A stretch of DNA of 59,250 bases, taken from NCBI GenBank assembly GCA_045535455.1, contig JAZSLQ010000089.1, positions 1-59,250 on the forward strand. The letters run 5' to 3'. The stretch comes from Kiritimatiellia bacterium. Its GTDB lineage: Bacteria > Verrucomicrobiota > Kiritimatiellia > RFP12 > UBA1067. Made by a program: the position numbers and the translations under genes. Below are positions 4,482 to 56,794 of this stretch, in pieces; positions within the stretch are counted from its first letter, which is position 1; each line of letters opens with the position of its first letter. The notes under the pieces were generated by a model. That model did no database searches. It was not told the DNA's origin and saw nothing but the letters and a program-made list of their open reading frames with translations.

Positions 4482-4506
4482 CGCAAAGAACGCAAAGGAC
4501 GCAAGG
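4482..4506 (+). repeat. 9-mer tandem repeat arm (cgcaaagaa/cgcaaagga/cgcaagg)
   Basis: Three units ending 2 nt before ATG 4509. Confidence 0.6.
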
Positions 4507-4508
4507 AA

Positions 4509-4847
4509 ATGGAGCAGAGGGAGTTCAAGTGTCGGATGTGCGGGGCGTGCTGCCGCATAAAGGACGGGATCGTGCGCGTCTCGGACGCGGAGATTGCGCG
4601 CATCGCGGCGTTTCTTGGAATGGATGAGGCCGAGTTCATCAAGCGTGAGACCGAAGTCGCGCCAGACAGGAAAAGCCTGATTCTCAAGAGCCGCCCGGAC
4701 GGCGCATGCGCCTATTTGACGGACGACAATCTCTGCCGCATCAATCCCGTGAAACCCGAGAAGTGCCGAACGTTCCCGTTTGAATGGACCAATCCAGACT
4801 CCGCCGAAGTCTGCTCGGGACTGGCAGAACAGCGAGAAGGGGATTGA
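4509..4847 (+). CDS. YkgJ-family cysteine-cluster (Zn/Fe-chelating) protein
   Basis: 'FKCRMCGACC', 'CAYL', 'CRIN..KPEKCRTFPF' and a terminal Cys. ATG 4509 preferred over 4395. Confidence 0.8.
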   Translation: MEQREFKCRMCGACCRIKDGIVRVSDAEIARIAAFLGMDEAEFIKRETEVAPDRKSLILKSRPDGACAYLTDDNLCRINPVKPEKCRTFPFEWTNPDSAEVCSGLAEQREGD

Positions 4848-4873
4848 CTTGGAGGCGCTATTTTTGGTAGAAT
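4844..4873 (+). promoter_or_regulatory. Promoter of the second AbiE operon with a flanking inverted repeat
   Basis: TTGACT (4844-4849), 18 nt, TAGAAT (4868-4873) with TG extension. IR gattgact (4842-4849) / agtcaatc (4880-4887). Confidence 0.5.
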
Positions 4874-4906
4874 ATGCGCAGTCAATCAAGTAGGAGCTGA
4901 TTATCT

Positions 4907-5542
4907 GTGGATATTTTGCAAAGAGAAAGGCTGTTGAAGTTTGGCGCAATACCGTTCACCACCGATGTGATTGCTGGCGAATTTGGCGACTATTCGGCAG
5001 TTCTTGCGAAAATTGCCGCGCTTGTTGATGAGGGCAGTCTTGTCCGCATCAAGCGCGGACTTTACTGTCTCTCCCCGAAAATCAGCGGACGTGACCTTGA
5101 TTCGCGTGTTGTCGCGAACGCTCTGTATGGCCCGTCGTATGTATCATTTGAAACGGCGCTTTCGATGCATGGCCTCATTCCAGAGCGCGTGACTGCAACG
5201 ATGTCTGCTTGTGTAAAGCGCGCAAAGCGGTTTGCGACGCCTATCGGAGAATTCTTGTATCGCACGGTACCTAGTGACTGGTTCTCGATAGGCGTTCGGA
5301 CGGTGGATAACGGTGAAGGCGGCTTTCTCGTCGCGTCGCCGGAAAAGGCGCTTGGTGATCTGCTCTTGTCGAGATCCAACCTGAGAATCTCGTCGCCCGA
5401 TTCGCTAAGGGCGTTTCTGGAGGACGACATGCGTTTTGATTTCGATGTATTTGGAAGTCCGGACAAGACAATCTTAAGGGAAATGGCGGCGTGTGGACAC
5501 AAGCCGCTTTTGATGAAGGCATTGGAAAGGATGTTCTCATGA
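4907..5542 (+). CDS. Type IV toxin-antitoxin antitoxin, AbiEi-like (second, unrelated pair)
   Basis: 'LVRIKRGLY', 'LYGPSYVSFETALSMHGLIPE' and 'ASPEKALGD' motifs; TAGGAG upstream of the GTG start. Confidence 0.85.
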   Translation: MDILQRERLLKFGAIPFTTDVIAGEFGDYSAVLAKIAALVDEGSLVRIKRGLYCLSPKISGRDLDSRVVANALYGPSYVSFETALSMHGLIPERVTATMSACVKRAKRFATPIGEFLYRTVPSDWFSIGVRTVDNGEGGFLVASPEKALGDLLLSRSNLRISSPDSLRAFLEDDMRFDFDVFGSPDKTILREMAACGHKPLLMKALERMFS

Positions 5543-6366: not shown

Positions 6367-6376
6367 TCGGCGTTTT

Positions 6377-6408
6377 AATCCTGTTAATCCTGTAAATCCT
6401 GTCTAAAA
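6377..6408. repeat. 9-mer repeat arm (AATCCTGTN x3 + TAAAA)
   Basis: aatcctgtt aatcctgta aatcctgtc taaaa; the same family occurs at 11964, 12670-12753 and 15435-15590. Confidence 0.85.
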
Positions 6409-6430
6409 AGAAATTTGAAAGGAATCGAAT

Positions 6431-11963: not shown

Positions 11964-11996
11964 TTTCTAGACAGGATTTACAAGATTTACAGGATT
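11964..11996. repeat. 9-mer repeat arm, opposite orientation to the arm at 6377
   Basis: tttctagacaggatttacaagatttacaggatt. Confidence 0.85.
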
Positions 11997-12013
11997 GAGA
12001 AAGAAGTAGGAGT

Positions 12014-12685
12014 ATGAATAGAAAGAAGATTGTTAAGTTTGCGGCTTGGGGAATTGTGGCCGCACTTGTCGCGTGGGGCGTGTCGGCGATTGCCGTCTAT
12101 TGGGTGTCGGCTGGGCGCGTGTTCGACAAGGCATCTGATGTTCCGCACTGCCGCGCCGCCGTTGTGTTGGGTTGTCGCAAGTCCCTGCCGAATGGACTCT
12201 TGAACCTTTATTTCACGCGGCGCATCGCCGCTGCCGCCGATCTTTACAAGGCGGGCAAGGTGGATTGCCTCATTGTCAGCGGCGACAACCATATCAAGGA
12301 GTATGACGAGGCGTCGGACATGAAGGAATCTCTTGCCGAGGCGGGCGTTCCTGCGGATCGCGTCGTCTGCGACTATGCGGGATTTCGCACGCTTGATTCT
12401 GTAGTGCGGGCGAAGAAGGTGTTTGGGCTTGATTCGTTCATTGTCGTTTCGCAGAAGGATCATGTTCGCCGCGCGGTCTTCACGGCGCGTGGCTTCGGCT
12501 GCAACGCATACGGCTATGCCGCGCCAGATGTCAACGGACGCTATTCAATCAAGACTACAATTAGGGAGCAACTTGCCAAGATCGCGGCGGTTCTCGATGT
12601 GATTCTTCGCCGTGGTCCTAAGTTCCTCGGCCCCCGAGAACTTCTGCCGGATGGTTCTCAGGGGAATGTTTTTAGACAGGATTAA
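12014..12685 (+). CDS. sanA: SanA/YdcF family protein (DUF218)
   Basis: N-terminal TM helix; 'LIVSGDN', 'DYAGFRTLDS' and 'IVVSQKDHVRRA' motifs; TAGGAG RBS. The stop codon lies within the repeat arm. Confidence 0.85.
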   Translation: MNRKKIVKFAAWGIVAALVAWGVSAIAVYWVSAGRVFDKASDVPHCRAAVVLGCRKSLPNGLLNLYFTRRIAAAADLYKAGKVDCLIVSGDNHIKEYDEASDMKESLAEAGVPADRVVCDYAGFRTLDSVVRAKKVFGLDSFIVVSQKDHVRRAVFTARGFGCNAYGYAAPDVNGRYSIKTTIREQLAKIAAVLDVILRRGPKFLGPRELLPDGSQGNVFRQD

Positions 12686-12753
12686 CAGGATTGACAGGAT
12701 TGTGGGGATGAATGGATGTCTTAATCTTGTAAATCCTGTAAATCCTGTCTAAA
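12670..12753. repeat. Complete palindromic 9-mer-arm element
   Basis: Left arm ttttagacaggattaacaggattgacaggatt (12670-12701); right arm aatcttgtaaatcctgtaaatcctgtctaaa (12723-12753). Confidence 0.85.
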
Positions 12754-12817
12754 CAAAACCGATAGGGGCAAATTCCATAAATACACGAATGGCATATGCG
12801 TGGGGGGCGTGGAAGAG

Positions 12818-13968: not shown

Positions 13969-15450
13969 ATGCCTGTTGATTGCGGATGGCTTGAGTCGTT
14001 TACGAAGCTCGTCGATGTAGTGTGCGGGTGGGTATGGGGATTGCCCCTCGTCGGTGCGATTCTTGTCACTGGGCTTGTCCTTACGCTGTGCCTGCGCTTC
14101 ACTCATATCTTCAACTTGAAGCGTGCCTTCGTCTACATGTTCCACACCGAGGAGGGCGACGAAGTGTCGGGCGAGGTGAGTTCTTTCGCCGCGCTTTGCA
14201 CTGCGCTTTCCGCGACGATCGGCACCGGCAACATCGTTGGCGTCGCGACGGCCATTGGCACAGGCGGCCCCGGCGCGCTCTTCTGGATGGAAGTCGCGGC
14301 GTTCCTCGGCATGGCGACGAAGTATGCCGAAGGACTGCTTGCTGTGAAATACCGCGAGGTGACGCCTGACGGTCGCGTGCTTGGCGGCCCGTTCTACTAT
14401 ATTGAAAAGGGCCTTGGGCATCGGTGGAAGCCGCTTGCCGTGGCGTTCGCAGTCTTTGGCGTGCTTGCAGGCGTCATGGGTATCGGCACCATCACGCAGA
14501 TCCACGGCATAACGTCTGCCGTGCAGCGGTTCTTAGACCCGCAGTTCAACCCCGCGGACATGGCGACTGGCATCGGGCTTTTCGGCACGACTTATTCCGT
14601 GCCGGTGGTGGTTGCAGGCATCGTGGTGACGCTCTGCGTGGGGCTCGTCGTCATCGGCGGCATCAAACGCATCGCCAAGGTGTCGTCCGTCGTCGTGCCT
14701 TTCATGGCGATTTTCTACATAGCCGTCATCGTGCTTTTGCTTCTCGGCAATCTCACGAAGGTGACGGCGGCGATCCAGACGATCGTGCTTGCCGCCTTTA
14801 ATCCGGAGGCAGTCACTGGCGGCGTCGTGGGAACAGTGTTTATCGCGATTCAGAAGGGTGTCGCGCGAGGTATCTTCTCGAATGAGGCGGGCCTTGGCTC
14901 CGCGCCGATTGCCGCCGCCGCCGCGAGGACGAACGAACCGGCGCGACAGGGACTCGTATGCATGACCGGTACCTTCATCGACACAATCGTCATCTGCACG
15001 ATGACTGGTCTTGCGATCGTTGTGACAGGCGCATGGGAGCCGTCGCTCGGGCTCGAGGGCGTCGACATCACGATAGAGGCGTTCAACCGCGGACTTGCCT
15101 TCATCGGCCCCCATTCAGGCATAATCTCGTCATTCTTCCTAATGACTGCGCTTACCTTCTTCGCGTTCACCACGATCCTCGGCTGGAACTACTATTCCGA
15201 GAAGTGCTTGGAGTATCTCGTCGGCACGGAGCGGCAGTGGTGCGTAAAGGCGTTCCGCGTCTTATATGTCGCTGTCGTATTTGTTGGACCATATCTAACC
15301 GTGTCGGTGGTGTGGGGCATGGCGGACGTGTTCAATGGCCTGATGGCTTTCCCGAACCTCATAGCTCTCTTGCTCCTCTCGCCTGTCGTCGCTCGCACGA
15401 CGGCGGACTTCTTCCGCCGCACGAGACAAGAAAGTTTTAGACAGGATTAA
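13969..15450 (+). CDS. Sodium:alanine/glycine symporter family (AGCS) transporter
   Basis: 'TIGTGNIVGVA', 'GGPGALFWM', 'GGPFYYI' and 'RGIFSNEAGLGSAPIA' motifs. GGAGG at 13956-13960 favours ATG 13969 over 13954. Confidence 0.92.
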   Translation: MPVDCGWLESFTKLVDVVCGWVWGLPLVGAILVTGLVLTLCLRFTHIFNLKRAFVYMFHTEEGDEVSGEVSSFAALCTALSATIGTGNIVGVATAIGTGGPGALFWMEVAAFLGMATKYAEGLLAVKYREVTPDGRVLGGPFYYIEKGLGHRWKPLAVAFAVFGVLAGVMGIGTITQIHGITSAVQRFLDPQFNPADMATGIGLFGTTYSVPVVVAGIVVTLCVGLVVIGGIKRIAKVSSVVVPFMAIFYIAVIVLLLLGNLTKVTAAIQTIVLAAFNPEAVTGGVVGTVFIAIQKGVARGIFSNEAGLGSAPIAAAAARTNEPARQGLVCMTGTFIDTIVICTMTGLAIVVTGAWEPSLGLEGVDITIEAFNRGLAFIGPHSGIISSFFLMTALTFFAFTTILGWNYYSEKCLEYLVGTERQWCVKAFRVLYVAVVFVGPYLTVSVVWGMADVFNGLMAFPNLIALLLLSPVVARTTADFFRRTRQESFRQD

Positions 15451-15590
15451 CAAGATTGACGGGATTATGAGAATTCGAGTTGAGAGTTGGAGTTCGAGAA
15501 AGGAAGTCGGAATAATTCCACCCTCCAACTCCAACTATTTTCTCCAACTATCTCTCTTAATCTTGTAAATCCTGTTAATCCTGTCTAAAA
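15435..15590. repeat. Nested palindromic element: outer 9-mer arms, inner GAGTTG/CAACTC arms
   Basis: Outer arms 15435-15466 and 15559-15590; inner arms about 15477-15498 and 15523-15556. Confidence 0.85.
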
Positions 15591-15611
15591 CAAAATTTGA
15601 AAGAGCCGAGT

Positions 15612-16811
15612 ATGGAATACATCTGGAAATACAAGACACCGGAAGGGTTTGACGATCTCGTGATGAGCGGGGACGGCGAGGCGCTGACAGGGCTCTGGTT
15701 CGCGGGCTCGCGTGACGCCGTGCGGCGCGGGGCAGCCGTCGAATTGCGCGAGACGCCGGTATTCCGCGAAACCTGCCGCTGGCTTGACGAGTATTTCGCC
15801 GGGCGCGACCCCGGCTTTACGCCCAACTATCGCATAGAAGACCTGACCGAGTTTCGCGCGGAAGTGATCGACGAACTCAAGCGGATTCCCTTTGGCGCCA
15901 CGGTGTCGTATGGTGACATAGCGAAGGCAATCTCAAAAAAGCACGGCGGAGCAAAGGTCTCGGCGCGCGCGGTCGGCGGTGCGGTTGGGTGGAACCCGAT
16001 TGGAATAATAATTCCGTGCCACCGCGTAATCGGCGCGGACAATGGCCTTACTGGCTACGGCGGCGGTCTTGGCAACAAGATATCGCTTCTTGCCCACGAA
16101 GGATCGGATCTTTTCGATGTTCGTCTTTCTGCTCCGAAGGACAGGAAGGACGAAATCGACGGAGTGTTCGTTCGGCGGTGTATTCAAGCCGTGAACAGGG
16201 CCGCTGCGCTGCATGGCCTTGGACGGGCGCGATGCGAAGAGAACGATGGCACGACGATATTGCTTGACGCACTTACTGATGGATGGGGTGAGTTTGCCGC
16301 GCCTTTTATCTTCGACGAGTGCAGCGACGACGACGCAAAGTTGCTGCTTGAGAGTTTTATTGATTTTCGATCTCTTTACCAATACGATCTCGCGGTTCAG
16401 CTTTCGCGTCTGCTGGCAAGACGAGGCGCGCTCGTCAGGGCGCGGATGGGACGCATTCTTGCAAAGACCGACTGGAGTTCGTATGGCTCTAACGGACTTT
16501 TGCTCTCGTATCTCGCGTCGAGGAAGGGGAGTGACCCGCTCATTTGCCGACTTTTGGACATAGTGGGCGAAGACAACCGCGACGGACTCTTCATTGCCTG
16601 CTGGTATTCGTCGGGGAAGAAGGTTCAGAAGTGTCTCAAGCGAAAGTTTGAGAGCTGGATCGAAAGCGACGACTCGTGGGGTGGCAGCACTGGCGAGGGG
16701 TGGTGGCTCGGCGCATTCCTTTCGAAATGGACGAAGGAGCAGACATTTTCTTACGAAGAACTCCAATTGCTTACACAGTGGTATCTTGAACACCAAATGC
16801 CTACACCATAG
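15612..16811 (+). CDS. Methylated-DNA-protein-cysteine methyltransferase (Ogt) with an unknown C-terminal domain
   Basis: Active site 'IIIPCHRVIG', plus 'IPFGATVSYGDIA' and 'ARAVGGAVGWNP'. About 230 extra residues follow 'LLAHEG'. Confidence 0.8.
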   Translation: MEYIWKYKTPEGFDDLVMSGDGEALTGLWFAGSRDAVRRGAAVELRETPVFRETCRWLDEYFAGRDPGFTPNYRIEDLTEFRAEVIDELKRIPFGATVSYGDIAKAISKKHGGAKVSARAVGGAVGWNPIGIIIPCHRVIGADNGLTGYGGGLGNKISLLAHEGSDLFDVRLSAPKDRKDEIDGVFVRRCIQAVNRAAALHGLGRARCEENDGTTILLDALTDGWGEFAAPFIFDECSDDDAKLLLESFIDFRSLYQYDLAVQLSRLLARRGALVRARMGRILAKTDWSSYGSNGLLLSYLASRKGSDPLICRLLDIVGEDNRDGLFIACWYSSGKKVQKCLKRKFESWIESDDSWGGSTGEGWWLGAFLSKWTKEQTFSYEELQLLTQWYLEHQMPTP

Positions 16812-16936
16812 TCTGCACAGGTTGTAGTGAACAAACAAGTAGCGAAAGTGTAAATTTGGGTAAATCTGGGGAGAGACCCTAAATTTGCTTGCAAAACAAT
16901 GCGATTTTTCGTGCGTAATTGAAACTTATCTAGAAA

Positions 16937-17007
16937 TGAGAATTCAATGCGGAATTCTTATCCTAGATGGGACTTTTCTTGCCAAGAATTTCCGCATAGA
17001 ATTCTCA
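16937..17007. repeat. Inverted pair of the ~28-bp TGAGAATTCWATGCGGAA motif
   Basis: tgagaattcaatgcggaattctt (16937-16959) and aagaatttccgcatagaattctca (16984-17007). Confidence 0.7.
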
Positions 17008-17015
17008 AAATAAAT

Positions 17016-17093
17016 TTGTAACAACTTCTCCATTGCATTGACGCAGAAAAGTTGTTACAATACTGTCGATATGGGCAGAAAAGTTGTTACAAT
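17016..17093. promoter_or_regulatory. Promoter and repeated operator-like sites of Fic gene 3
   Basis: TTGCAT (17033-17038), 17 nt, TACAAT (17056-17061). 19-bp direct repeat gcagaaaagttgttacaat at 17043 and 17075; inverted core ttgtaacaact at 17016-17026. Confidence 0.65.
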
Positions 17094-18054
17094 CGGTGGT
17101 AAGCCGTTTCATTCCAAGCTTGCGCCATACGAAAGCGAAGTGAAAGAGCTTAAGGCTTCCAGTGCAAGCGTTAGGGCGATTGCGGCTGAGATGTTTGCGC
17201 GGCATGGCATCCAAGTGTCGCACAATGCCGTCGCGTCGTTTTTGCGGACGCATGGTACCAAGCGTCGCAACTTTCTTGACGGAATCGGCGAGGCGAGGCG
17301 AACGGAACTGCTAAAGGCGATTAGGGCGCTTTGGACGCACGACTCTACGGCGATCGAGGGCAATACACTCTCGCTCGGCGATACGATGGCGGTGCTGGAG
17401 TATGGCTTGACGGTGAAGGGGAAGCCGCTCAAGGACCATCAGGATATTGTCGCCCACGCGAACGGCGTTGATTTTGTGCGTTCGCTTCTTGACAAGGGGC
17501 GTATTGCCGAAGCGGATGTCTTGGAGTTGCATCGCATCGTCGTGCCGAATGAAACGCGAGACATATACAAGCCCATTGGAGCGTGGAAGCGCGAGGACAA
17601 TGGCACTTATGGCGCCGAGGGTGGCAGAAGCGTCTACATGCCCTACGCCTCTGCCGATGAAACGCCGAAACTGATGCGCGGCTGGATAAAGGCGTTCAAC
17701 TTGTTGTTTGACGGCATCAAGGGCGCAGACGCTGCGCTTGAGGCGTATTTGTTCGCCCATGTCTCGTTTGTGCGAATCCATCCGTTCTTTGACGGCAACG
17801 GCAGGCTTGCGCGGCTTCTTGCAAATCTGCCGGTTCTCTACGCGGGCTTCCCGCCGATTGTAGTTCCGTCCGAGGCGCGGCTTGAGTACATCCGCGAACT
17901 TTGGGATTACCAGCGCGCGGTGGGCGTAATCAGTCTCGCAAGAAAAGAGCTGCTGCCCGAACCGACACGACTCGACAATCTGCGCCGCCTCATTCGCAAT
18001 TGGTGGCAGACAACTCTCGACCTCGTTGCCGAGGCAAAGGGGAGTTCAAAATGA
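17071..18054 (+). CDS. Fic family protein (canonical motif) with a putative N-terminal HTH
   Basis: 'HPFFDGNGRLAR' and 'STAIEGNTL' motifs; helix-turn-helix-like 'SVRAIAAEMFARHGIQVSHNAVASFLR'. ATG 17071 preferred over TTG 17038. Confidence 0.9.
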   Translation: MGRKVVTIGGKPFHSKLAPYESEVKELKASSASVRAIAAEMFARHGIQVSHNAVASFLRTHGTKRRNFLDGIGEARRTELLKAIRALWTHDSTAIEGNTLSLGDTMAVLEYGLTVKGKPLKDHQDIVAHANGVDFVRSLLDKGRIAEADVLELHRIVVPNETRDIYKPIGAWKREDNGTYGAEGGRSVYMPYASADETPKLMRGWIKAFNLLFDGIKGADAALEAYLFAHVSFVRIHPFFDGNGRLARLLANLPVLYAGFPPIVVPSEARLEYIRELWDYQRAVGVISLARKELLPEPTRLDNLRRLIRNWWQTTLDLVAEAKGSSK

Positions 18055-18928: not shown

Positions 18929-18942
18929 TACGTTTATCCCGT

Positions 18943-18991
18943 GGCGGGTTCATCTGTTCCAGCCGCGGCGCTTCCCGCCTGTGCGTTTTTT
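18943..18991 (+). terminator. Possible weak intrinsic terminator after sod
   Basis: ggcggg (18943-18948) / cccgcc (18974-18979) followed by a T-run at 18986-18991; the loop is long. Confidence 0.25.
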
Positions 18992-19061
18992 CCACATCTG
19001 AGGCGAAAAATATGATAAAATACCACCTAATTGTTTTTACTAATAGGAGATAGATCGTATA

Positions 19062-20246
19062 ATGAAGACGAGCACGAAGAACGAGTACAAGTGCCAAGTT
19101 GAGCTTAAGGTCGAGCTAAACGCCGAGGAAATGAAGGGAATCGTGAAGGACGTCGAAAAGGCGTTCGTCCGCGAAGCACGGATCCCAGGCTTCCGCCCCG
19201 GCAAGGTTCCGATTGAAATCATCCGCAGACAGTTTGCCGACGGCCTCAAGCAGGAGACCGAACACACGATGATCCGCAAGCACTACGCGGACGCGGTAAA
19301 GGCCGAGAAGCTCGACGAGATTACGCTTGCCGACGTGAAGGACATCTCGTTCTCTACCGACGGCGGCACGTTCACGGCCGTTGTCGAAATCAAGCCGAAG
19401 TTCAAGGTTCCGACCTACAAGGGTCTCAAAATCGCCGACAAGGACACTGCGGTTTCCGACGAGGCCGTCAAGGAGCAGCTCGAGCGCCTGCGCGCCGCGT
19501 ACGCGAAGTACGAGGACGCCAAGGAGGGAGATACCGTTGCCGATGGCGATTTCGTGCAGATCGACTACACCGGCACCGTTGACAAGAAGCCGATCCTCGA
19601 GATCGCGCCCGAGGCCAAGGTCGTCGCGTCCGGCACGGGCTTCTGGACTCAGGTCGAGGAAGGGCGCTTCCTCCCCGAGATCCTCGACGCCGTGAAGGGC
19701 ATGAAGGTCGGCGAGACGAAGGAAGACGTCAAGGCGAAGTTCGCGAAGGAAGGCGCCCCCGAAGGGCTCGGCGGCAAGAAGGCCGTCTACACGGTGACGC
19801 TCAAGGCGTTCCGCCGCCGCGTTCTCCCCAATGACGCCGAATTTGCCGAGAAGGCGAAGGCCGAGTCTGTCGAGAAGCTTTCCGCCACGATTCGCGAGTC
19901 GCTCGAGAAGCAGGCCGTCGAGGCCGAGGCGATGCGCCGCGAGAACGAGGCCGTCGAGTTGCTTCTCAAGAAGGCCGATTTCGACGTTCCGCAGAGCCAG
20001 GTCCGCCGCGCAATGGACGGCTACCTCCAGGAGCTCGCGCAGCGTGCGCAGTATTCCGGGCTCGACGCTTCCTACTTCGAAAAGAACCGCGACAAGATCC
20101 TCAAGGACGCCGAAGAGGCCGCCACGAAGCAGGTCCGGCTCTGGTACGTCCTCGAAGCGATCGCCAAGGCCGAGAACATCGAGGCCAAGGACGAGGAGCG
20201 TGGCAAGAAGGTCATCGACTTCGTCCTCGCGAACGTGAAGAAGTAG
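19062..20246 (+). CDS. tig: Trigger factor
   Basis: 'IPGFRPGKVP' ribosome-binding motif, FKBP-like middle domain, located upstream of clpPX. Promoter -10 TGATAAAAT at 19013-19021. Confidence 0.95.
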   Translation: MKTSTKNEYKCQVELKVELNAEEMKGIVKDVEKAFVREARIPGFRPGKVPIEIIRRQFADGLKQETEHTMIRKHYADAVKAEKLDEITLADVKDISFSTDGGTFTAVVEIKPKFKVPTYKGLKIADKDTAVSDEAVKEQLERLRAAYAKYEDAKEGDTVADGDFVQIDYTGTVDKKPILEIAPEAKVVASGTGFWTQVEEGRFLPEILDAVKGMKVGETKEDVKAKFAKEGAPEGLGGKKAVYTVTLKAFRRRVLPNDAEFAEKAKAESVEKLSATIRESLEKQAVEAEAMRRENEAVELLLKKADFDVPQSQVRRAMDGYLQELAQRAQYSGLDASYFEKNRDKILKDAEEAATKQVRLWYVLEAIAKAENIEAKDEERGKKVIDFVLANVKK

Positions 20247-20254
20247 CATTGGTG

Positions 20255-20310
20255 CAACCTTTCAACCTTTCAAATTTTCAACCTTTCAACTTTTCAACTT
20301 TTCAACTTTA
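20255..20310 (+). repeat. 8-mer tandem array (caacYttt x7) between tig and clpP
   Basis: Seven imperfect 8-mers ending 1 nt before the clpP ATG. Confidence 0.9.
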
Positions 20311-20311
20311 A

Positions 20312-20893
20312 ATGAAGTCATACATGATACCGTATGTCGTCGAGCAGACCGGCAAGGGCGAGCGTACGTACGACATCTACTCGCGCCTCCTCCTCGACAG
20401 GATCGTCTTCATCTCGGGCGAGGTGAACGACGAGATGGCGAACGCCGTCTGCGCCCAGCTTCTCTTCCTGCAGTCGCAGGACCCGAAGAAGGACATCAAC
20501 GTCTACATCAACTCGCCGGGCGGCAGCGTCACGGCGGGGCTCGCGATCTACGACACGATGCAGTTCGTCAAGTGCCCGGTCGCGACATACTGCATCGGCC
20601 AGGCCGCTTCCATGGGCGCGGTGTTGCTGACTGCGGGCGCGAAGGGCAAGCGCCATGCGCTCCCTAATTCGCGCATCATGATCCATCAGCCGTGGGGCGG
20701 CGCCGAGGGCAAGGCCTCCGACATCGAGATCACGGCGAAGGAAATCCTTCGGCTCAAGGAAATCTTGAACGGCATTCTCGCGAAGCACTCCGGCAAGAAG
20801 TTGGCTGACGTCGTTAAGGACACGGATCGCGACCACTTCATGTCGGCCGCCGAGGCCGTTGAATGGGGTCTTGTCGACAAGGTCGTGGAATGA
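20312..20893 (+). CDS. clpP: ATP-dependent Clp protease proteolytic subunit
   Basis: '[11 protein letters not shown]', 'YINSPGG', 'GQAASMG' and 'IMIHQP' motifs. Confidence 0.98.
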
Positions 20894-22131
20894 AAGAACT
20901 GACCTGTTCGTTTTGCGGAAGAAGCTCGAAAGAGGTCGGGATGATCCCTGGCCCCGACGCGAACATCTGCGTCGACTGCGTTCGCCACGCCAACGAGATG
21001 GTGACGCGCCACGAGAAGAAGGCAAAGGACGTTCCGCCTCTTCCGCCTACGCCGACCCCGAAAGAAATAAAGGCGTTTCTCGACCAGTATGTCATCGGGC
21101 ACGACGAAGTGAAGAAGGTGCTCGCCGTTGCCGTTCACAATCACTATCGCCGCCTTGAGGCCGCGGAGAAGGGTAATGGAATGGACGGGGGTTCGGGCAC
21201 CCCCGCACCCCAGCCCGCGGAAAAGTTTACTGATGTTGAAATCGAGAAGTCCAACATCCTCCTTATCGGGCCGACTGGAACAGGCAAGACACTTCTTGCG
21301 CGGACGCTCGCGAAGATGCTTGGTGTTCCGTTCGCCATCGGTGACGCGACGGTGCTCACGCAGGCGGGCTATGTTGGTGAAGATGTCGAGAACCTCGTCC
21401 GCTACCTTCTCCAGAATGCCGACGGCAATGTCGAGCTCGCAAAGCGCGGCATAATCTACGTTGACGAAATAGACAAGATTGCGTCAAAGACAGACAACGT
21501 GTCAATCACGCGCGACGTCTCTGGCGAAGGCGTTCAGCAGGCGCTTCTCAAGATCCTCGAGGGCACGATTTGCCGCATTCCGCCGAAGGGCGGCCGCAAG
21601 CACCCCGACCAGGAGTATATCGAGGTCGACACTTCTAACATCCTCTTCATCTGCGGCGGAGCTTTCGTCGGTCTCGACAAGATAGTCGGCGAGCGCACCG
21701 GCAAGCGCGCCATTGGTTTTGGCGCGGCGGAGCAGAAGACGGGGAACGGGGAACGAGGAACGGGGAACGGCGATGTCCGTCCCGAGGATCTCGTAAAGTT
21801 CGGGTTAATCCCCGAGTTCACGGGCCGTCTCCCCGTCATCACCACAATGAAGGAGCTTTCCGAGGACGATCTCGTTCGCGTCTTGACTGAGCCAAAGAAC
21901 TCGCTCGTCAAGCAGTACCAAAAACTCCTCTCAATGGATGGCGTCTCGCTCTCGTTCGAGCCCGACGCCCTCAAGTCGCTCGCGAAGACTGCGCTTGAGC
22001 GCAAGACAGGTGCGCGCGGTCTCCGCGCCGAGATGGAGCGACTCATGACCGACGTAATGTATGAGGCGCCGGGCAACGCAAAGATGAAGAAGGTCGTAGT
22101 GACGAAGAAAATGGTCGAGGAGAGGAGCTAG
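20890..22131 (+). CDS. clpX: ATP-dependent Clp protease ATP-binding subunit
   Basis: Zinc finger 'CSFCG...ICVDC', Walker A 'GPTGTGKT', '[14 protein letters not shown]' and 'GARGLR'. ATG overlaps the clpP stop. Confidence 0.98.
21740..21769 (+). repeat. 7-mer array (cggggaa x4) inside clpX
   Basis: cggggaa cggggaa cgaggaa cggggaa cg, translated as [11 protein letters not shown]. Confidence 0.85.
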
Positions 22132-22158
22132 CCGCGAAGGCACCAAGCACCAGGCACC

Positions 22159-22491
22159 ATGTTACTTGAGATACTAAAAGCAAAATTGCACAGGATACGC
22201 GTAACCGAGGCGTGCCTCGATTACGAGGGCTCGCTTACGCTTGATCCCGACGACATGGAAGCGGTCGGGCTCGTCCCCTACGAGAAGATTCTTGTCGCCG
22301 ACGTCGAGAACGGAAACCGCTTCGAGACCTACGCCATAGCCGGAAAGCGCGGCAGCCACGTCTGCTGTCTCAACGGCGCGGCGGCGCACAAGGGCAAGAT
22401 AGGCGACCGGCTCATCGTAATGTGCTTCGCCCAGATGACGCCAGAGGAGGCTAAGGGTTGGTCGCCTCTCGTAAAGCATTTCAGGAGTTAG
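22159..22491 (+). CDS. panD: Aspartate 1-decarboxylase
   Basis: 'KAKLHR..VT...DYEGS' self-cleavage site, 'NGNRFETYAI' and 'LNGAAA'. Confidence 0.95.
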   Translation: MLLEILKAKLHRIRVTEACLDYEGSLTLDPDDMEAVGLVPYEKILVADVENGNRFETYAIAGKRGSHVCCLNGAAAHKGKIGDRLIVMCFAQMTPEEAKGWSPLVKHFRS

Positions 22492-22531
22492 TGGCTCGTG
22501 CCATGGAAATACTGAACCTTCGGACACAGAT

Positions 22532-24865: not shown

Positions 24866-26334
24866 GTCTCGGGGATACGATTGCGGCGGTTGCGACAGCC
24901 CCCGGGCGCGGGGGCGTCGCGGTAATCAGGGTAAGCGGCCCCGAGGCGTTTCAAGTCGCCGAGCATCTTACTGGTCACATCCCTACACCTCGTAGGGTCA
25001 GTTTAGAGTCTATTAAAACCCCTGGCTCGACCCTAATCGACACTGCAGTTGTCCTCGGCTTCAAGGGACCGCATTCCTATACCGGCGAGGATGTCGTAGA
25101 GTTCCAGTGCCACGGCGGTTCTGTCACTCCTCGCCGCGTCCTCGAGGCTTGCCTCGCCTCTGGCGCTCGGCTTGCGCATCGCGGCGAATTCACCGAGCGC
25201 GCGTTCCTTAACGGACGACTCTCCTACGAGGAAGCGGAATCGGTCCTCGATCTTGTTGACGCAAAGACAGAGCGCGGCGCAGACGCCGCGCTTCGCGGGT
25301 TGACAGGTGAGAGTCGCCGCGAGACGCAAGGCATCTACAAGGCGCTCGTCGACCTCTCGTCGACTATCGAACACGCGCTTGACGTGAGCGAAGAGGAACT
25401 TCCAGACGGCTTCTGCGCCAACATCGCCTCGTCTGTCGACGCGATTGCCGCTCGCCTCGATGACGCAATCCGCCGCGCGAAAGAGGGAAAGATACTGCGC
25501 GAGGGTGCGCTTGTCGTGATCGCAGGGCCGCCTAACGCCGGCAAGAGCTCGCTTCTAAACGCGCTTCTCGGCGAGAGCCGCGCAATAGTTTCGGCGACGC
25601 CGGGGACGACGCGCGACTCGATAGAGGAGTGGCTTGACGTCGGCGGCTGGCCTGTACGGCTTGTCGACACGGCGGGGCTTCGTGAGACCGCCGACGCCAT
25701 TGAAGGCGAGGGTGTCGCGCGCGCGCGCGATCTTATGGAACAGGCCGACATAGTGCTGAACCTGACCCCTGCCGATTCAAGCTGCTCGTTATCTGATGTA
25801 AGTCGCAAATCGCCCGCCACAAAAACTATCGAGGTTTTTTCTAAATGCGATCTGGCAACAAACTCCGAAGATTATGGCTCTCGTTACCACTCCGCAGTTT
25901 CACACTCGACAATCACTGTTCACGAGAATCTCAATAGTGATGGTTTGGTGGCGCGAAGCGGTGGAGCGTTAGCGGGAACAACAACCATCGGAGTTTCTAT
26001 CAGCGTCAAGACAGGCGAGGGGCTTGATGCGCTCCGCGGCGCAATAGCCGCGGCGCTCGAGCGCAAGGCCGCAGAGCCAAGTGACGCCGATTCAGCCCTT
26101 GCTCGCGACGCGGCGGCGCTCGGCGAGACCAGGGCGCTCCTCACCCCAACTCCCCCACTCCCCCACTCCCCCACTCCTCCACTCCCCAACTCCTCCACTC
26201 CCACGCTCCCCGACCTCGTTCTCCTTGCAAATCGCGTTCGCGCAGCGGCAGAACGGCTTGGCGAGGGGATAGGCGCGACCTATTCGGCCGATATGCTTAA
26301 TGCGCTCTTTTCCCGTTTTTGCGTAGGAAAGTGA
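24862..26334 (+). CDS. mnmE: tRNA modification GTPase MnmE, with two insertions
   Basis: 'DTIAAVAT', '[15 protein letters not shown]', 'GPPNAGKSS', 'GTTRD', 'DTAGLR' and terminal 'FSRFCVGK'. Confidence 0.96.
26144..26207 (+). repeat. 8-mer array (ccYcMact x8) inside mnmE
   Basis: Eight imperfect 8-mers translated as [21 protein letters not shown]. Confidence 0.9.
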
Positions 26335-26343
26335 TTTTGCCAT

Positions 26344-26372
26344 TTGCCATAAGACGCGATAGATGGTATAAT
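26344..26372 (+). promoter_or_regulatory. Promoter of the pilC-pilin operon
   Basis: TTGCCA (26344-26349), 17 nt, TATAAT (26367-26372) with TG extension. Confidence 0.7.
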
Positions 26373-26404
26373 CTACCCAAACTTGAGGAAGGTCTATTCC
26401 GAAC

Positions 26405-28887: not shown

Positions 28888-28889
28888 CA

Positions 28890-35590: not shown

Positions 35591-35597
35591 CAGCGAT

Positions 35598-36518: not shown

Positions 36519-36522
36519 CGCA

Positions 36523-37122: not shown

Positions 37123-37123
37123 A

Positions 37124-37858
37124 ATGACTGACGCCCACTGCCATGTCTCTTGCGGTGACTCGTCTGTGCGCGAGTTTCTGATTGGCCGCGACTTCTTCGG
37201 TGTTCATCCCTGGGAGACTCTTGATGGGACAAGCAAGACTGGCGGGACATCCGAGACTAACGCGCTTCTTGTCCCGGATGTCCCAGTTGTCCCATTTCTC
37301 ACTGCGCTCCTTGCCTCGCTTCGCCCTAAGCTCCATGCGAATCCCAACGCTGGCGTTGGTGAGATCGGCCTCGACCGCCTCAAGGTGCGTGACATCCCGC
37401 CTCTTATGCGCACGGTCTTTGAGTTCCAGCTATCTCTTGCGATTGAGCTCCACCGCCCCGTCGTTCTTCACGGCGCGAAGTGCTGGGGTCAGGTGGTGGC
37501 GACGGTAAAGAGGATGATGGGGGGAGGACTTGCGACGCGCGATACGCGACAGGCGTTTTTGTTTCATGGCTTTTCCCGCTCTGATGGGCTTATTCCAGAG
37601 ATCATCAAACTCAATGGCTTTATTTCCGTTGGCCCGGCTGTCCTGAACGACCATGCAGTGAATTACCGTGAGCTCGTCAAGAAAATCCCCTTAGACCGTC
37701 TCCTCGTCGAAACCGACGCCGTGGCAGAGGCGCGTGTCCCTACGCGCCCGCACATCCGCGACGTCCTTGCCAAGACTGCAGACATCCTCAACCTCTCCGC
37801 CTCGGAACTCGAGCGGATTACCGACGAAAACGCCGACCGCTTCCTTGGCGTTGTGTGA
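37124..37858 (+). CDS. TatD-family hydrolase, with an in-frame repeat insertion
   Basis: 'DAHCH', 'GVHPW', 'VGEIGLD', 'RPVVLH' and 'LLVETD' motifs. Confidence 0.88.
   Translation: MTDAHCHVSCGDSSVREFLIGRDFFGVHPWETLDGTSKTGGTSETNALLVPDVPVVPFLTALLASLRPKLHANPNAGVGEIGLDRLKVRDIPPLMRTVFEFQLSLAIELHRPVVLHGAKCWGQVVATVKRMMGGGLATRDTRQAFLFHGFSRSDGLIPEIIKLNGFISVGPAVLNDHAVNYRELVKKIPLDRLLVETDAVAEARVPTRPHIRDVLAKTADILNLSASELERITDENADRFLGVV
37224..37295. repeat. Palindromic 9-mer-arm element inside tatD
   Basis: (g/a)(g/a)gac at 37226, 37235, 37244 and 37253; gtccc at 37271, 37280 and 37289. Confidence 0.8.
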
Positions 37859-37871
37859 TATAATACACGCC

Positions 37872-50320: not shown

Positions 50321-50324
50321 CCAC

Positions 50325-51194: not shown

Positions 51195-51207
51195 CAATGA
51201 GGAAACA

Positions 51208-52065: not shown

Positions 52066-52071
52066 CCCTAC

Positions 52072-52100: not shown

Positions 52101-52112
52101 GTTCGCCAACAG

Positions 52113-53780: not shown

Positions 53781-53782
53781 TA

Positions 53783-53831
53783 GGAGTCAGGGGTCAGTAG
53801 TCGGGGGTCAGTAGTCAGGAGTCAGTAGTAG
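53783..53831 (+). repeat. 7-mer tandem array (gRRgtca/gtagtca x7)
   Basis: ggagtca ggggtca gtagtcg ggggtca gtagtca ggagtca gtagtag. Confidence 0.85.
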
Positions 53832-53855
53832 AATTTAAAAAAGGAGAGATTTGAG

Positions 53856-54938
53856 ATGGACGTACACATGAACGAGCTTCTTCAGGCCACCATCGACGAA
53901 GGTGGTTCCGACCTCCATATCCGCGCGTACATGCCGCCGGAGCTTCGTGTCCACGGCGAGTTGTGCCCGCTCTCCGACGAGACGCTTACCGAGGAAGACG
54001 CCTACAACCTTGTGAGGGAAATCTCGACCGACGAGCAGATGGAGGAAGTCGAGAAGAACGGTGGTGCAGACTTCGCCCTTGCGCACCCCGACGGAACGCG
54101 TTTCCGTGTCTCGATCTTCAAGGAAAGGAAGCGCTACGGCGCGGTCTTGCGCCAGATTCCGTCGAAGCTCCTGACCCTGGAGCAGATCGGCATCCCGCCG
54201 ACCGTAAAGGAACTTCTCTTCAAGCCGCGCGGTCTTATCCTCGTCACCGGCCCGACGGGCTCGGGCAAGTCGACGACGCTTGCCTCGATGCTCAACGTCA
54301 TCAACCACGAGCGCGGCGTCCACATCATCACGATCGAAGACCCGATCGAATTCTACCACACGTCCGCTAAGTCGCTCATCACGCAGCGCGAAGTGGGCGA
54401 CGACGTGCCGAGCTTCGCGGAGGCGATCCGCCGCGCGCTACGTCAGGACCCCGACGTGATTCTCGTCGGCGAAATGCGCGACCTCGAGACGATTGCCGCG
54501 GCCATTACCGCCGCCGAAACCGGCCACTTGGTCTTCGGAACCCTGCACACGACAGGCGCCGCAGAGACGATCGACCGTATCGTCGACGCGTTCCCGACGA
54601 ACCAGCAGGAGCAGGTGAGAACCCAGCTCGCGGCAGGCCTCCAGGCCGTCATCTCCCAGATACTCCTCCCGAAGCTTGACGCGAACGGCGAGGTGCACGG
54701 GCGCGTCGCGGCGTTCGAGATCATGACGTCCACAGATGCGATCCGCTCGAGAATCCGCGACAACAAGACGAACATGATCAAGTCTGACCTCCAGACTGGC
54801 GCGAAGTTCGGCATGATGACGCTCGACGCGTCGCTGACGAACCTCTACAAGGAAGGGCTCATCTCCTACGAAGAGCTCATCACCAAGTCTCAGGATCCCG
54901 ACTCCGTCGTCGCCAAGCTCAAGGAGGAGATGGCGTAG
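53856..54938 (+). CDS. pilT: Type IV pilus retraction ATPase
   Basis: 'SDLHI', 'GPTGSGKSTTLA', 'IEDPIEF', 'ALRQDPD', 'TLHT' and 'AIRSRIR' motifs. Confidence 0.95.
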   Translation: MDVHMNELLQATIDEGGSDLHIRAYMPPELRVHGELCPLSDETLTEEDAYNLVREISTDEQMEEVEKNGGADFALAHPDGTRFRVSIFKERKRYGAVLRQIPSKLLTLEQIGIPPTVKELLFKPRGLILVTGPTGSGKSTTLASMLNVINHERGVHIITIEDPIEFYHTSAKSLITQREVGDDVPSFAEAIRRALRQDPDVILVGEMRDLETIAAAITAAETGHLVFGTLHTTGAAETIDRIVDAFPTNQQEQVRTQLAAGLQAVISQILLPKLDANGEVHGRVAAFEIMTSTDAIRSRIRDNKTNMIKSDLQTGAKFGMMTLDASLTNLYKEGLISYEELITKSQDPDSVVAKLKEEMA

Positions 54939-54940
54939 AG

Positions 54941-56632
54941 ATGAACGACCCGATTCTCCAGATTCTCGTCCAGAACGGCTATCTCGACGAGGCGTCCGCC
55001 CAGGAGCTCGCAGACACCGCGAAGTCCGAGGGCAAGTCGATTCGGCAGGCGGTCCTCGACCAGGAGATACTCACCGAGGACGACCTTCTCGGCGTTCTCG
55101 CCGCCTACCAGGACACCGAGGCGATAGACCTTGGCGGGATGACGATAGACACCGAGGTCACCGAGGCGATCCCCGCTTCGACGGCCCGCATGTACAACGT
55201 CTTTCCAGTGGCGGCCGACGAATCGTCGGTGACGCTCGCGACCTTTGAGCTTGTCGATCCGCGCATTGCCGACGAGATGCTCTTCACGCTCTCGAAGGAG
55301 GTGAAGTTCGTCTTCGCCCGCGAAAAGGACGTGATGGACCGCATCGCCCAGTACTACGGCGACGCGAACGACTCTGTCGCGGACATGATCAAGTCCCTCG
55401 GCGAGGGGCTCGGCGACGACGAGGGGCTTGCCTCGGCGAACGTCAACGACATCGCGTCGATGGAGAACGCGGCGAATTCGTCGGCGATCATCCGCTTTGT
55501 AAACCTCATTCTCTACCAGGGCGTAGTCGATCGCGCGTCGGACATCCACGTCGAGCCGTTCGAGAACGACTTCAAGATACGCTACCGCGTCGACGGCGCG
55601 CTTTACGAGATGAAGGCGCCCGACGTCAAGATGGCTCCCGCGATCATCTCGCGCATCAAGATCCTCTCCAACCTCAACATCGCCGAGCGCCGCATCCCCC
55701 AGGACGGACGAATCGCGCTCACCGTCGCGGGAAGGCCCGTGGACCTCCGTGTCTCATGCCTCCCTACCGCGCACGGCGAGTCGGTCGTAATGCGAATCCT
55801 CGACCAGTCCGCGACCTCGCTCGATCTTGAGAACGTGGGGCTTCCAGAGGACGTCTATGAGCAGATCACGATGGACGTCGAAAAGCCCAACGGCATCTTC
55901 ATCGTGACGGGACCGACCGGCTCTGGCAAGACTACGACGCTCTACTCCATTCTTCGCCGCATCAACCAGATCGACACGAAGCTTCTTACAGCCGAGGAGC
56001 CAGTAGAATACAACGTGGACGGCATTGTGCAGGTGCCGATCGACCCGAAGGTCGGCAACACGTTTGCGAAGGTCCTGCGAGCGTTCCTGCGACAAGACCC
56101 AGACGTGATGATGATTGGCGAGATCCGCGACCTTGAGACGGCTGAAATCGCGATTCAGGCCGCGCTTACGGGTCACTTCGTATTTTCGACGCTGCACACC
56201 AACGACGCCGCAGGCGCCGTCACGCGCTTCGTTGACATGAACGTTGCGCCGTATCTTCTCTCGTCGACGCTTGAAGGCGTGCTTGGCCAGCGTCTTGTGC
56301 GTACTTGCTGCCGCGAGTGCCGCGAGGCCTATGAACCGGACGACGAGACGCTGGAGCGCATTTCCATGACGCGCGACCAGATAGGCGGGCGTCCGTTCTA
56401 CTTTGGCCGCGGCTGCAAAACATGCAATGGTACCGGTTACAAGGGGCGCAAGGCCGTCGTGGAGTATTTGCGCATATCGAATCCGCTCCGCGAGTTGATC
56501 AACAGCCGTGCGCCGACGCTCCTTTTGCAGGAGAAGGCGCGCGAGCTTGGAATGCGCACGATGCGTGAGCACGGCATACAGGCGATTCTCGACGGATACA
56601 CGACCGTTGACGAGGTGCTGAGGTACACGTGA
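54941..56632 (+). CDS. pilB: PilB/GspE family assembly ATPase (copy 2)
   Basis: 'ASDIHVEP', 'GPTGSGKTTTLY', 'LRQDPD' and CxxC...CxxC motifs. Confidence 0.93.
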   Translation: MNDPILQILVQNGYLDEASAQELADTAKSEGKSIRQAVLDQEILTEDDLLGVLAAYQDTEAIDLGGMTIDTEVTEAIPASTARMYNVFPVAADESSVTLATFELVDPRIADEMLFTLSKEVKFVFAREKDVMDRIAQYYGDANDSVADMIKSLGEGLGDDEGLASANVNDIASMENAANSSAIIRFVNLILYQGVVDRASDIHVEPFENDFKIRYRVDGALYEMKAPDVKMAPAIISRIKILSNLNIAERRIPQDGRIALTVAGRPVDLRVSCLPTAHGESVVMRILDQSATSLDLENVGLPEDVYEQITMDVEKPNGIFIVTGPTGSGKTTTLYSILRRINQIDTKLLTAEEPVEYNVDGIVQVPIDPKVGNTFAKVLRAFLRQDPDVMMIGEIRDLETAEIAIQAALTGHFVFSTLHTNDAAGAVTRFVDMNVAPYLLSSTLEGVLGQRLVRTCCRECREAYEPDDETLERISMTRDQIGGRPFYFGRGCKTCNGTGYKGRKAVVEYLRISNPLRELINSRAPTLLLQEKARELGMRTMREHGIQAILDGYTTVDEVLRYT

Positions 56633-56633
56633 T

Positions 56634-56794
56634 AGAGTTTAAAGTTCAAAGTTTAAAGTTGAAAGTTGTGGTGGGTGGATAGTTGGAGTTGTGAGTTGGA
56701 GTTGGAGAGTGGAATGGTAAAATCTCCTTCTTGGGTTTTGCACATTGCACATTGAACATTGCACATTGCACATTGAACTTTGAACATTGAACTT
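56634..56794. repeat. Composite 7-mer-arm element containing an extended -10 box
   Basis: aaagttN array 56634-56668; gagttg units about 56680-56710; TGGTAAAAT at 56715-56723; tgMacWt x8 at 56739-56794. Confidence 0.85.

Follow-up and report, generated by a model that had tools for sequence, protein, structure and literature searches.

Short tandem arrays of 7- to 9-nucleotide (nt) units are scattered between and within the genes of contig JAZSLQ010000089.1 (C14) of the Kiritimatiellia metagenome-assembled genome (MAG) GCA_045535455.1 (G000; 3.43 Mb, 85% complete), of which the whole stretch of 59,250 nt analysed here is called the window. We favour the reading that these arrays are gene-less derivatives or half-sites of selfish hairpin cassettes, analogous to miniature inverted-repeat transposable elements (MITEs) or to hairpin-forming doublets of repetitive extragenic palindromes (REPINs), and regard it as moderately probable. 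The evidence comes from the architecture of the elements, their link to small cargo genes, their turnover between strains, an arm family found across phyla, and the intact catalytic motif of one cargo protein, GxxExxY. An earlier note on this DNA, made from its letters alone, had taken the arrays for footprints of an insertion/excision system; the allele, position, pairing and cargo results support that proposal, the insertion or excision event itself being what we infer from them.

The note had counted at least 13 sites and at least eight units. With Tandem Repeats Finder (TRF; period 7–9 nt) and direct reading of the sequence, the region 4482–56794 of the window yields at least 16 array sites and at least ten different 7–9-mer units. 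Reading added the left arm at 15441 and, at 15477–15555, an inner pair of GAGTTGR/CAACTCC units. TRF detected five ACAGGATTN/AATCCTGTN ×3 arms (6375, 11971, 12675, 12723 and 15557), the arm at 15441 being the sixth. The genome-wide catalogue that the note had called for, non-redundant TRF arrays of period 7–9 with at least 2.8 copies, holds 356 arrays in the MAG (129, 103 and 124 of period 7, 8 and 9), as against 1, 0 and 0 in a simulated 5th-order Markov genome of equal size and composition; the arrays are therefore real and far above chance.

The main family of the window, ACAGGATTN ×3, is the ACAGGATT family, which forms a stereotyped foldback of ~70 nt. The genome has 37 left and 35 right arms of this family, 72 in all; almost every one has exactly three units (27 nt), and 48 of them are joined in 24 left–right foldbacks, with a commonest loop of 12 nt and the ends TTTTAG...CTAAAA. 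In the stems of these 24 foldbacks the outer unit is perfectly paired, the N position of the units is mismatched in 21/24 and 18/24, and the G/A position of units 2 and 3 forms a Watson–Crick pair in 7/24 and 4/24, or 11 of 42 informative cases once six other mismatches are left out. As the mismatches keep fixed positions, the degenerate units represent a conserved mismatch pattern. The earlier argument from degeneracy against simple recent slippage thus holds for the degenerate positions of the hairpins, but not for solo arrays, which do change by whole units between strains. Relative to transcription, G–U (41) and A–C (45) mismatches are equally common, and nothing points to selection on RNA pairing.

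A second kind of foldback is built of heptamers, with TAAAGTG/TAAAGTT units on the left, an apical mini-hairpin GTGGA...TCC, and CAACTTT/CACTTTT units on the right. Foldbacks of this kind at unlinked loci agree in the order of their variant units (CAACTTTACACTTTTCACTTTCAACTTTCAACTT) and in their loops (GTGGAATTTTAAGATTCC), a sign of copying and not of independent slippage. Gene-less inverted doublets of both kinds, the 24 ACAGGATT foldbacks and many heptamer foldbacks, are dispersed in spacers and combine, as MITEs do, terminal inverted repeats, no coding capacity and many copies. Over all families an inverted partner lies within 200 nt of ~20% of arrays (73, against 24 in the control), so that most arrays are solo arms. 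The pairing predicted by the note is therefore found in the ACAGGATT family and at three places in the window (12676/12723, the nested 15441/15559, and 56636–56794, with predicted folds of -44 to -69 kcal/mol), but not in the majority of arrays. A search of the hairpins against Rfam returned no matching family, its sole match (E = 0.31) being noise.

The link to cargo genes comes from the rest of the genome and from its relatives. The MAG encodes one GxxExxY gene (TIGR04256/PF13366) and three four-helix-bundle genes (PF05635/TIGR02436), and all four (on C25, C20, C78 and C223) are bracketed by inverted short-repeat arrays within protein-coding surroundings. The window contains no gene of either family, as the note had stated, and the S23p (PF05635) open reading frames (ORFs) whose terminal inverted repeats form a stem are on C25 and C20. 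With the ends of the genes fixed by HMM profile alignment, inverted arms scoring higher than 14.5, the 95th percentile for 200 control genes, flank 26 of the 27 GxxExxY genes examined and 18 of the 22 four-helix-bundle genes, most of them from relatives; the note had likewise placed low-complexity flanks around genes of these two families in PVC and Bacteroidota genomes. The arms differ by cargo. Those of GxxExxY genes are typically three 8–9-mers with an outer TTTWAG (CACAAAGNA, GCGCAGAG, GCGGAGNN, CGTGTAGAA, CACGGATTN or ACAGGATTN); those of four-helix-bundle genes are nearly always heptamers (e.g., GAGTTGA/CAACTYT, GGGAACN, TAAAGTG or GGTAGTT). By regex-level assignment, ~70% of the 356 arrays belong to unit families that also arm cargo genes, be it here or in relatives. 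Cargo-bearing copies with arms like those of the gene-less ones were read at L175, L082, L129, L149, L148 and L036, and their cargo is a putative transposase. Cassettes or foldbacks also occur at contig ends (C20:1–450, C25:15080–15720, and also C187:29 and C230:29, all in G000). Such repeats probably interrupt the assembly, and MAGs may under-represent cargo-bearing copies.

The ACAGGATT arm is not confined to this lineage. A pattern scan with the 26-nt arm ACAGGATTNACARGATTNACARGATT, one genome per species, matched at least 118 loci in many phyla, those among the matches listed including Kiritimatiellota, Verrucomicrobiota, Acidobacteriota, Bacteroidota, Chloroflexota, Planctomycetota, Gamma-, Beta- and Deltaproteobacteria, and others. 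By reading individual loci we found true foldbacks in Thioalkalivibrio denitrificans, in Spirosoma terrae and in a Methanoperedens MAG; T. denitrificans ALJD and S. terrae KCTC 52035, both with a ACAGGATT foldback, are culturable isolates, which makes bench tests feasible. One match was rejected: in Neobacillus cucumis (L133; CP126111.1, ~2,544,250–2,544,400) the pattern falls in a coding (NPV)n repeat, CCTGTTAAT ×6 within a longer CCAGTTAAN repeat. This chance match means that the count of at least 118 loci includes some false ones, and pattern-based counts call for caution. At five of the loci read, from three phyla, ACAGGATTN-type arms enclose a GxxExxY gene (Table 1). The proteins of these cassettes are 49–74% identical, while their arms are nearly unchanged; constraint on the arms is thus much stronger than on the protein, which is what a specific recognition site would lead one to expect.

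Alleles at the window's sites were compared by means of exact-protein look-ups with ClpP and a PilT-like ATPase, which gave 17 metagenome contigs, the ClpP-anchored ones being 89–96% identical to the window. Contig C7 of the relative G003 is collinear with window 19008–38687 at 82–85% identity. Look-ups with the DUF218 protein and the symporter gave no further contigs, for which reason the strain alleles of the elements at 11971, 12676 and 15441 are those of a single strain contig, L028. The filled and empty alleles that the note had proposed to look for exist: the tig-clpP, clpX-panD and panD-nhaP spacers, the MnmE loops and the site at 56636 are each empty or occupied by another family in one strain or another. 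In nine alleles, those of eight strain contigs and of the window, the tig-clpP spacer has CAACYTTT ×4, 5, 6 or 7; L034 has a GGGGTCAGTAGTCA array there and G003 another repeat; in L028 the spacer has no array, leaving 5 nt to the ATG, or 17 nt if ClpP starts at the second ATG. That second ATG (ATGATACC, residues MIPYV; window 20312–20326) is probably the true start of ClpP, not 20312, and the first ATG is missing in G003.

Neighbouring spacers behave similarly. The clpX-panD spacer, GCACCAA in the window, has GGGGTCA heptamers instead in L027, L028, L032, L033 and L036; the panD-nhaP spacer has no array in the window or L028 and ~3–6 AAAGTTG-type units elsewhere. The 14-nt units at 53782 number 2.2 in L120 and L121, 3.2 in the window and 4.2 in L123, and the GGGGTCAGTAGTCA unit of this site is the one found at tig-clpP in L034, the GGGGTCA heptamers being those of clpX-panD in five strains. 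At 56636–56794, L117–L119 have a different, shorter GGGGTCA-type hairpin. Downstream of the superoxide dismutase gene, a GxxExxY cassette with GCGCAGAG octamer arms fills the spacer in L036, and L034 and L035 are empty there. A further difference lies between that gene and tig, at window 18930–18958, where L028 (4576–5694), L034, L035 and L036 have an extra small gene and a radical-SAM gene that the window lacks; this insert ends in AATCCTGTAAATCCTG in L034 and L036, and the sequence is degenerate in L028. In L028 the Fic and symporter genes, 2 nt apart in the window, have a ACAGGATT left arm between them. L028 also lacks window 15467–18045 (2.6 kb), which comprises most of the nested foldback, an MGMT-domain gene (15597–16811) and the gene at 17038–18054; at that site the end of its symporter gene, with a single TTTAGACGGGATCAAC unit, directly abuts the next gene.

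Inside genes, G003 and most strains keep the ClpX array at 21739; it has been replaced in L027, L032 and L028. The MnmE site at 26144 has CCCCCACT ×8.5 in the window, ~5.5 copies in L029 and L030 and ~2.5 in L027, in in-frame steps of 24 and 21 nt, and instead carries CAACTTT ×3 in G003 and ×6 in L031; two more MnmE loops have arrays in L031 or G003 and none in the window. In the N-terminal linker of ClpX (window 21180–21218) we also observed a 39-nt in-frame segment (GGGGGTTCGGGCACCCCCGCACCCC...) that L027, L032 and L033 do not have; G003 has in its place a GCACCAGCGAAGCGCAA repeat of its own, with which its tig-clpP and clpX-panD spacers are filled as well.

The arrays are not placed at random. 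Wholly intergenic arrays number 133 of the 356 (37%), a further 12% overlap a gene end and 181 are fully inside genes, in a genome with 10.3% intergenic DNA; arrays are thus 4–5 times enriched outside genes, these counts being approximate because the gene calls (2,645 genes, 90% coding) come from our own codon-usage caller. About half of the arrays lie in frame in protein loops, a location that the note had reported and that we confirm for ClpX (21739) and MnmE (26144). Single loops can gather several elements, as in three adjacent genes of G000 (C248:7652–11261) with composite in-frame inserts of several families (e.g., ...NCHNCS...SASLR...NPVNPVNPV...). By type of spacer, 145 intergenic arrays are co-directional, 8 convergent and 2 divergent, where spacer length predicts 119, 17 and 19 (p = 8.5e-7 for the divergent deficit). 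The near exclusiveness of co-directional spacers indicates that the arrays live inside transcription units and avoid promoter regions. All copies in the window are in protein-coding operons or inside genes, with none in a 23S rRNA helix, and relative to transcription there is no general bias in orientation, copies running both ways. The closeness to stop and start codons pointed out in the note is real, but is mostly a consequence of short spacers, and a preference for one end is weakly borne out: 83 arrays are closer to the upstream stop and 61 to the downstream start (p = 0.08, not significant). The arms have stop codons in two of the three frames, so that a copy can replace the end of an upstream gene. 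The stop TAA of the DUF218 gene (12683–12685) lies inside the first unit of the foldback at 12670–12755, and that of the symporter gene (15448–15450) inside the outer left arm of the nested element.

In the GxxExxY alignment, G26, G28, E31, Y34, D71, E81 and K83 are invariant. The structural model, a confident one (pLDDT 90.9), has a PD-(D/E)XK core, and Foldseek places it closest to Cas4 (SSO0001), to lambda exonuclease, to Hjc and to the tRNA-splicing endonuclease; searching the PDB by sequence returned nothing meaningful. With a conserved E...D...(D/E)xK motif on an alpha-beta-beta-beta-alpha-beta core, the protein has the features of the PD-(D/E)XK fold, and nuclease activity is predicted for it.

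A mechanism that would account for these results is as follows. A complete cassette consists of a left arm of 3–6 short units in tandem, then a small gene, then a right arm in which these units are inverted, and comes in at least two lineages: one with a GxxExxY gene of PD-(D/E)XK nuclease fold, arms of three 8–9-nt units (CACAAAG, CGCAGAG, GCGGAG, CGTGTAGA or ACAGGATT) and ends TTTWAG...CTWAAA, the other with a four-helix-bundle gene (S23p/Avd family) and heptamer arms. Most copies here would have lost the gene, leaving foldbacks of 70–170 nt or single arms. The repeated units may be binding sites for the cassette's own protein, in the case of GxxExxY a nuclease, which could mobilise full and gene-less copies in trans, as happens with the REP-associated tyrosine transposase (RAYT) and REPINs or with a transposase and MITEs. 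Selection would let copies persist only where they are harmless, in co-directional spacers and in frame in surface loops of proteins. After arrival, solo arrays would gain or lose whole units by slippage, with in-frame changes alone surviving inside genes, and between strains a site could be emptied or taken by another family. A bolder version, which we put forward tentatively and think doubtful, is that GxxExxY proteins are the catalytic core of pan-bacterial (possibly archaeal) minimal transposons, in which a gene for a ~120-residue PD-(D/E)XK nuclease sits between inverted arrays of three 8–9-bp recognition units, the four-helix-bundle heptamer cassettes forming a parallel class. Were it true, one type of element would cover 23S rRNA intervening sequences (IVS), the short tandemly repeated repetitive (STRR) sequences of cyanobacteria, the heptanucleotide elements of Geobacter and 'selfish DNA in proteins', and such elements would be a major source of small indels in bacterial proteins and operon spacers.

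Several observations weigh against the cassette reading. Some 80% of arrays are without a partner within 200 nt; by the loose unit-family screen ~100 arrays (~30%) are tied to no cargo; and two 8-mers of the window, CCCCCACT and CAACYTTT, lack a cargo-bearing counterpart, the latter being grouped with the heptamer CAACTTT family only through a loose unit match. Arm type does cluster on the tree of GxxExxY proteins (9 changes, where shuffling gives 17.3 and none of 200 shuffles reaches so low a count), but physical linkage alone would produce such clustering. No GxxExxY gene of the MAG is armed with ACAGGATT or CGCAGAG units, although these form its two largest arm families, with 72 and ~50 arms; a resident cognate gene is therefore not needed to keep the arms. 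The correlation with candidate enzyme families suggested in the note was not evident: PF05635 and PF13366 are present in 29 of 31 relatives, with 0–23 and 0–7 copies, and across the 31 array density does not obviously go with their copy number. In 20 relatives the contigs sampled have 0–2 arrays per 10 kb, and unit families are common to families of the order (AATCCTGTC in G013 and G026; CTCTGCG in G001, G003 and G026). No target-site duplication is visible at the tig-clpP, superoxide dismutase-downstream, nested-insertion or other strain junctions, where element boundaries are not base-exact, and the strain alignments revealed no mobility event and no defined target motif. We know of no catalytic activity for the four-helix-bundle protein; this, the missing cognate genes and the ~30% of arrays without cargo tell against a simple model of mobilisation in trans.

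Four other explanations were considered. The arrays could act at the RNA level in the manner of an IVS, folding in the operon transcript and being cut by RNase III, which would free the cargo mRNA or uncouple cistrons, with spread by recombination and horizontal transfer and not by an enzyme that the element encodes. Their confinement to transcription units (145 co-directional against 2 divergent) and their stably folding stems agree with this, as does the four-helix-bundle cargo, which belongs to the family of the Coxiella IVS ORF; that IVS has strain-variable heptamers and a 28-bp stem cut by RNase III (PMC4990558). Cleavage of the in-frame copies in the essential ClpX and MnmE would do harm, however, most arrays are solo arms with no local fold, the equality of G–U and A–C mismatches gives no sign of selection for RNA pairing, and the arrival of copies at new sites is left unexplained by this model, which we consider unlikely. 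Alternatively, the units might bind a host protein, or the four-helix-bundle or GxxExxY protein as a regulator, and as cis-regulatory sites tune operon expression. Conservation of unit families across phyla and the fixed three units of ACAGGATT arms fit such a role, and the 49 elements of four tandem heptanucleotides in Geobacter metallireducens are annotated as putative regulatory sites (PMC2700814). Regulatory sites are hard to reconcile with presence, absence and family swaps at one site among strains 89–96% identical, with copies in both orientations and in frame inside unrelated proteins, or with avoidance of the divergent spacers that bear promoters; we hold this explanation to be quite unlikely.

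That the arrays are ordinary micro- or minisatellites made by local replication slippage, perhaps as contingency (phase-variation) loci, is very improbable. Strains do differ by whole units, from 4 to 7 of 8 nt at tig-clpP and 2.2, 3.2 or 4.2 of 14 nt at 53782, but the array-free tig-clpP allele has no seed from which an array could grow, different unit families occupy one site, and unlinked loci and different phyla share units, variant orders and loops. Nor do the arrays behave as switches: variants within genes keep the frame (the MnmE alleles differ by 24 and 21 nt), a stop and a start codon flank the intergenic arrays, and ACAGGATT arms stay at three units. Slippage as the origin of the arrays is thus largely refuted, and is likely as the cause of copy-number change after arrival. 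The last alternative, REPs or REPINs mobilised by a RAYT, an IS200-like HUH transposase, shares with the elements the logic of a small gene in inverted repeats with many gene-less copies, and the genome has four Y1_Tnp-like (PF01797-like, IS200/RAYT-like) genes (Table 1). Each of these is bracketed by inverted repeats of its own ~1.0–1.1 kb apart, mostly GC-rich REP-like palindromes (e.g., CGCGGGGACAGGCCCCGCGAAAG and GAAGGGTCTGACCCTTC), with ~13-nt tandem units flanking L242. No 7–9-mer array stands beside any of the four, the arrays flanking PF13366 and PF05635 genes instead; the arrays are therefore not the REPs of these genes, and mobilisation by a RAYT is likewise very improbable. In their layout the Y1_Tnp loci resemble a classical REP/RAYT system, present in this genome side by side with the tandem-unit elements.

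Individual elements of the window can be matched to these groups (Table 1). The arm at 4482 belongs to the GxxExxY-type CRCAAAG family, and its units (AAGAACGCAAAGAGCGCAAAG) also arm a GxxExxY gene of the relative G018 (L087). At 11965 the order of left arm, GAGAAAGGAG and ATG is one found at other solo left arms of the genome. The nested insertion at 15435–15592 also speaks for the cassette reading; its inner units match the arms of a four-helix-bundle gene in G004 (L105). GGGAACN heptamers, compared with the ACGGGGA array of ClpX, are the arms of such a gene in G017 (L100), and the counterpart of the array at 37270 in the collinear contig of G003 is GTCCCAGAT ×3.7. In the composite foldback TRF reports AGTTTAA ×4.6 at 56636 and TTGCACA ×7.4 at 56738.

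Table 1. Array elements of the window (positions in the 59,250-nt stretch), GxxExxY cassettes with ACAGGATTN-type arms, and Y1_Tnp genes.
Position	Strand	Feature	Context and details
4482..4508	+	Solo arm CGCAAAGAA ×3 (83% matches)	In frame in ORF 4395-4847; weak array; TRF and reading
6371..6409	+	Solo right arm AATCCTGTN ×3 and terminal CTAAAA	Between AbiEii gene (stop 6366) and GH18 gene (start 6431)
11965..11997	+	Solo left arm (TCTAG)ACAGGATTN ×3	Followed by ribosome-binding site and DUF218-gene ATG (12014)
12670..12755	+	Complete gene-less foldback	Left arm 12676-12702 (preceded by TTTTAG) and right arm 12723-12749 (followed by CTAAA) around a 20-nt loop; -43.8 kcal/mol
15435..15592	+	Nested element	Outer ACAGGATTN ×3 arms 15441-15467 and 15559-15585; inner heptamer foldback GAGTTGR/CAACTCC ~15477-15555; -68.9 kcal/mol
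20247..20311	+	Solo array CATTGGTG(CAACYTTT)×7 (TRF: 20255, ×6.9)	Fills tig-clpP spacer
21739..21770	+	ACGGGGA ×4.6	In frame, variable loop of ClpX; TRF, Pfam and translation
22134..22158	+	GCACCAA ×~3 (TRF: 22140, ×2.9)	clpX-panD spacer
26144..26211	+	CCCCCACT ×8.5	In frame, MnmE helical-domain loop; C-terminal CVGK kept; TRF, Pfam and translation
37270..37294	+	Weak array TGTCCCAGA ×2.8	In frame, TatD-like gene
53782..53829	+	GGGGTCAGTAGTCA ×3.2	14-nt period = two heptamers (GGGGTCA/GTAGTCA, TRF ×6.9); spacer between two T2SSE-type ATPase genes
56636..56794	+	Composite foldback	Left AGTTYAA/AGTTGAA heptamers ending GTGG; inner AGTTGG/GAGTTG units; right TTGCACA/TTGAACA ×7.4; -45.6 kcal/mol
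		GxxExxY cassettes with ACAGGATTN-type arms	L175, Kiritimatiellia; L082, G012, window's genus; L129, Chthoniobacterales; L149 and L148, Blastocatellia
G000 C49:3698-3937, C39:4576-4749, C72:17937-18104, C27:6524-6685		Y1_Tnp genes (L242-L245)	

Our literature search found no paper that joins these observations and no description of the class, and repeat-armed hairpin cassettes seem to be undescribed as such. PF13366 has been reported as 'unknown', with multiple transfers between divisions (PMC3424549). If the cassette reading is correct, it would give a common explanation for tandem heptamer to nonamer repeats, for IVS-like hairpins with and without an ORF, and for low-complexity inserts in conserved proteins, as well as a testable role for two very large families of unknown function, PF13366/TIGR04256 and PF05635/TIGR02436. 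The elements reshape essential genes such as those of ClpX and MnmE, as well as operon spacers, within the time in which strains diverge, which bears on strain typing, metagenome assembly and the evolution of protein loops.

Among known systems, REPIN/RAYT (PMC3116915) shares a small gene within an inverted short repeat, tens to hundreds of gene-less doublets found mostly in spacers, and a lineage-specific repeat. The gene here is of PD-(D/E)XK fold or a four-helix bundle, whereas RAYT is an HUH Y1 enzyme; the arms are 3–6 tandem 7–9-nt units, whereas REPs are single palindromes; and many copies lie in frame in genes. MITEs and the Rickettsia palindromic elements (RPEs) are likewise short, non-coding, multi-copy foldbacks with terminal inverted repeats, and RPEs too are tolerated in frame in protein loops; in our elements, unlike these, no target-site duplication was found, the arms are internally periodic, and the putative autonomous partner is a ~0.5-kb cassette with a gene of ~120 codons and not an insertion sequence (IS) element. 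The 23S rRNA IVS of Coxiella burnetii and Leptospira (PMC4990558) resemble the heptamer cassettes in their S23p/PF05635 cargo and in the terminal inverted repeats that form a long stem; in Coxiella, strain-variable tandem heptamers stand beside the S23p ORF and RNase III cuts the IVS out. The elements described here differ in occupying protein-coding operons and genes and not rRNA helices, in mostly lacking an ORF, and in having GxxExxY as a second, unrelated cargo. The cyanobacterial STRR sequences and the Geobacter heptanucleotide elements, of which G. metallireducens has 49, each of four heptanucleotides and placed within and between genes (PMC2700814), are also tandem heptamers of several unit families per genome, without known function. 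They have been described as repeats or putative regulatory sites, without a link to cargo, hairpin or turnover; by analogy, our observations suggest that they could belong to the class found here.

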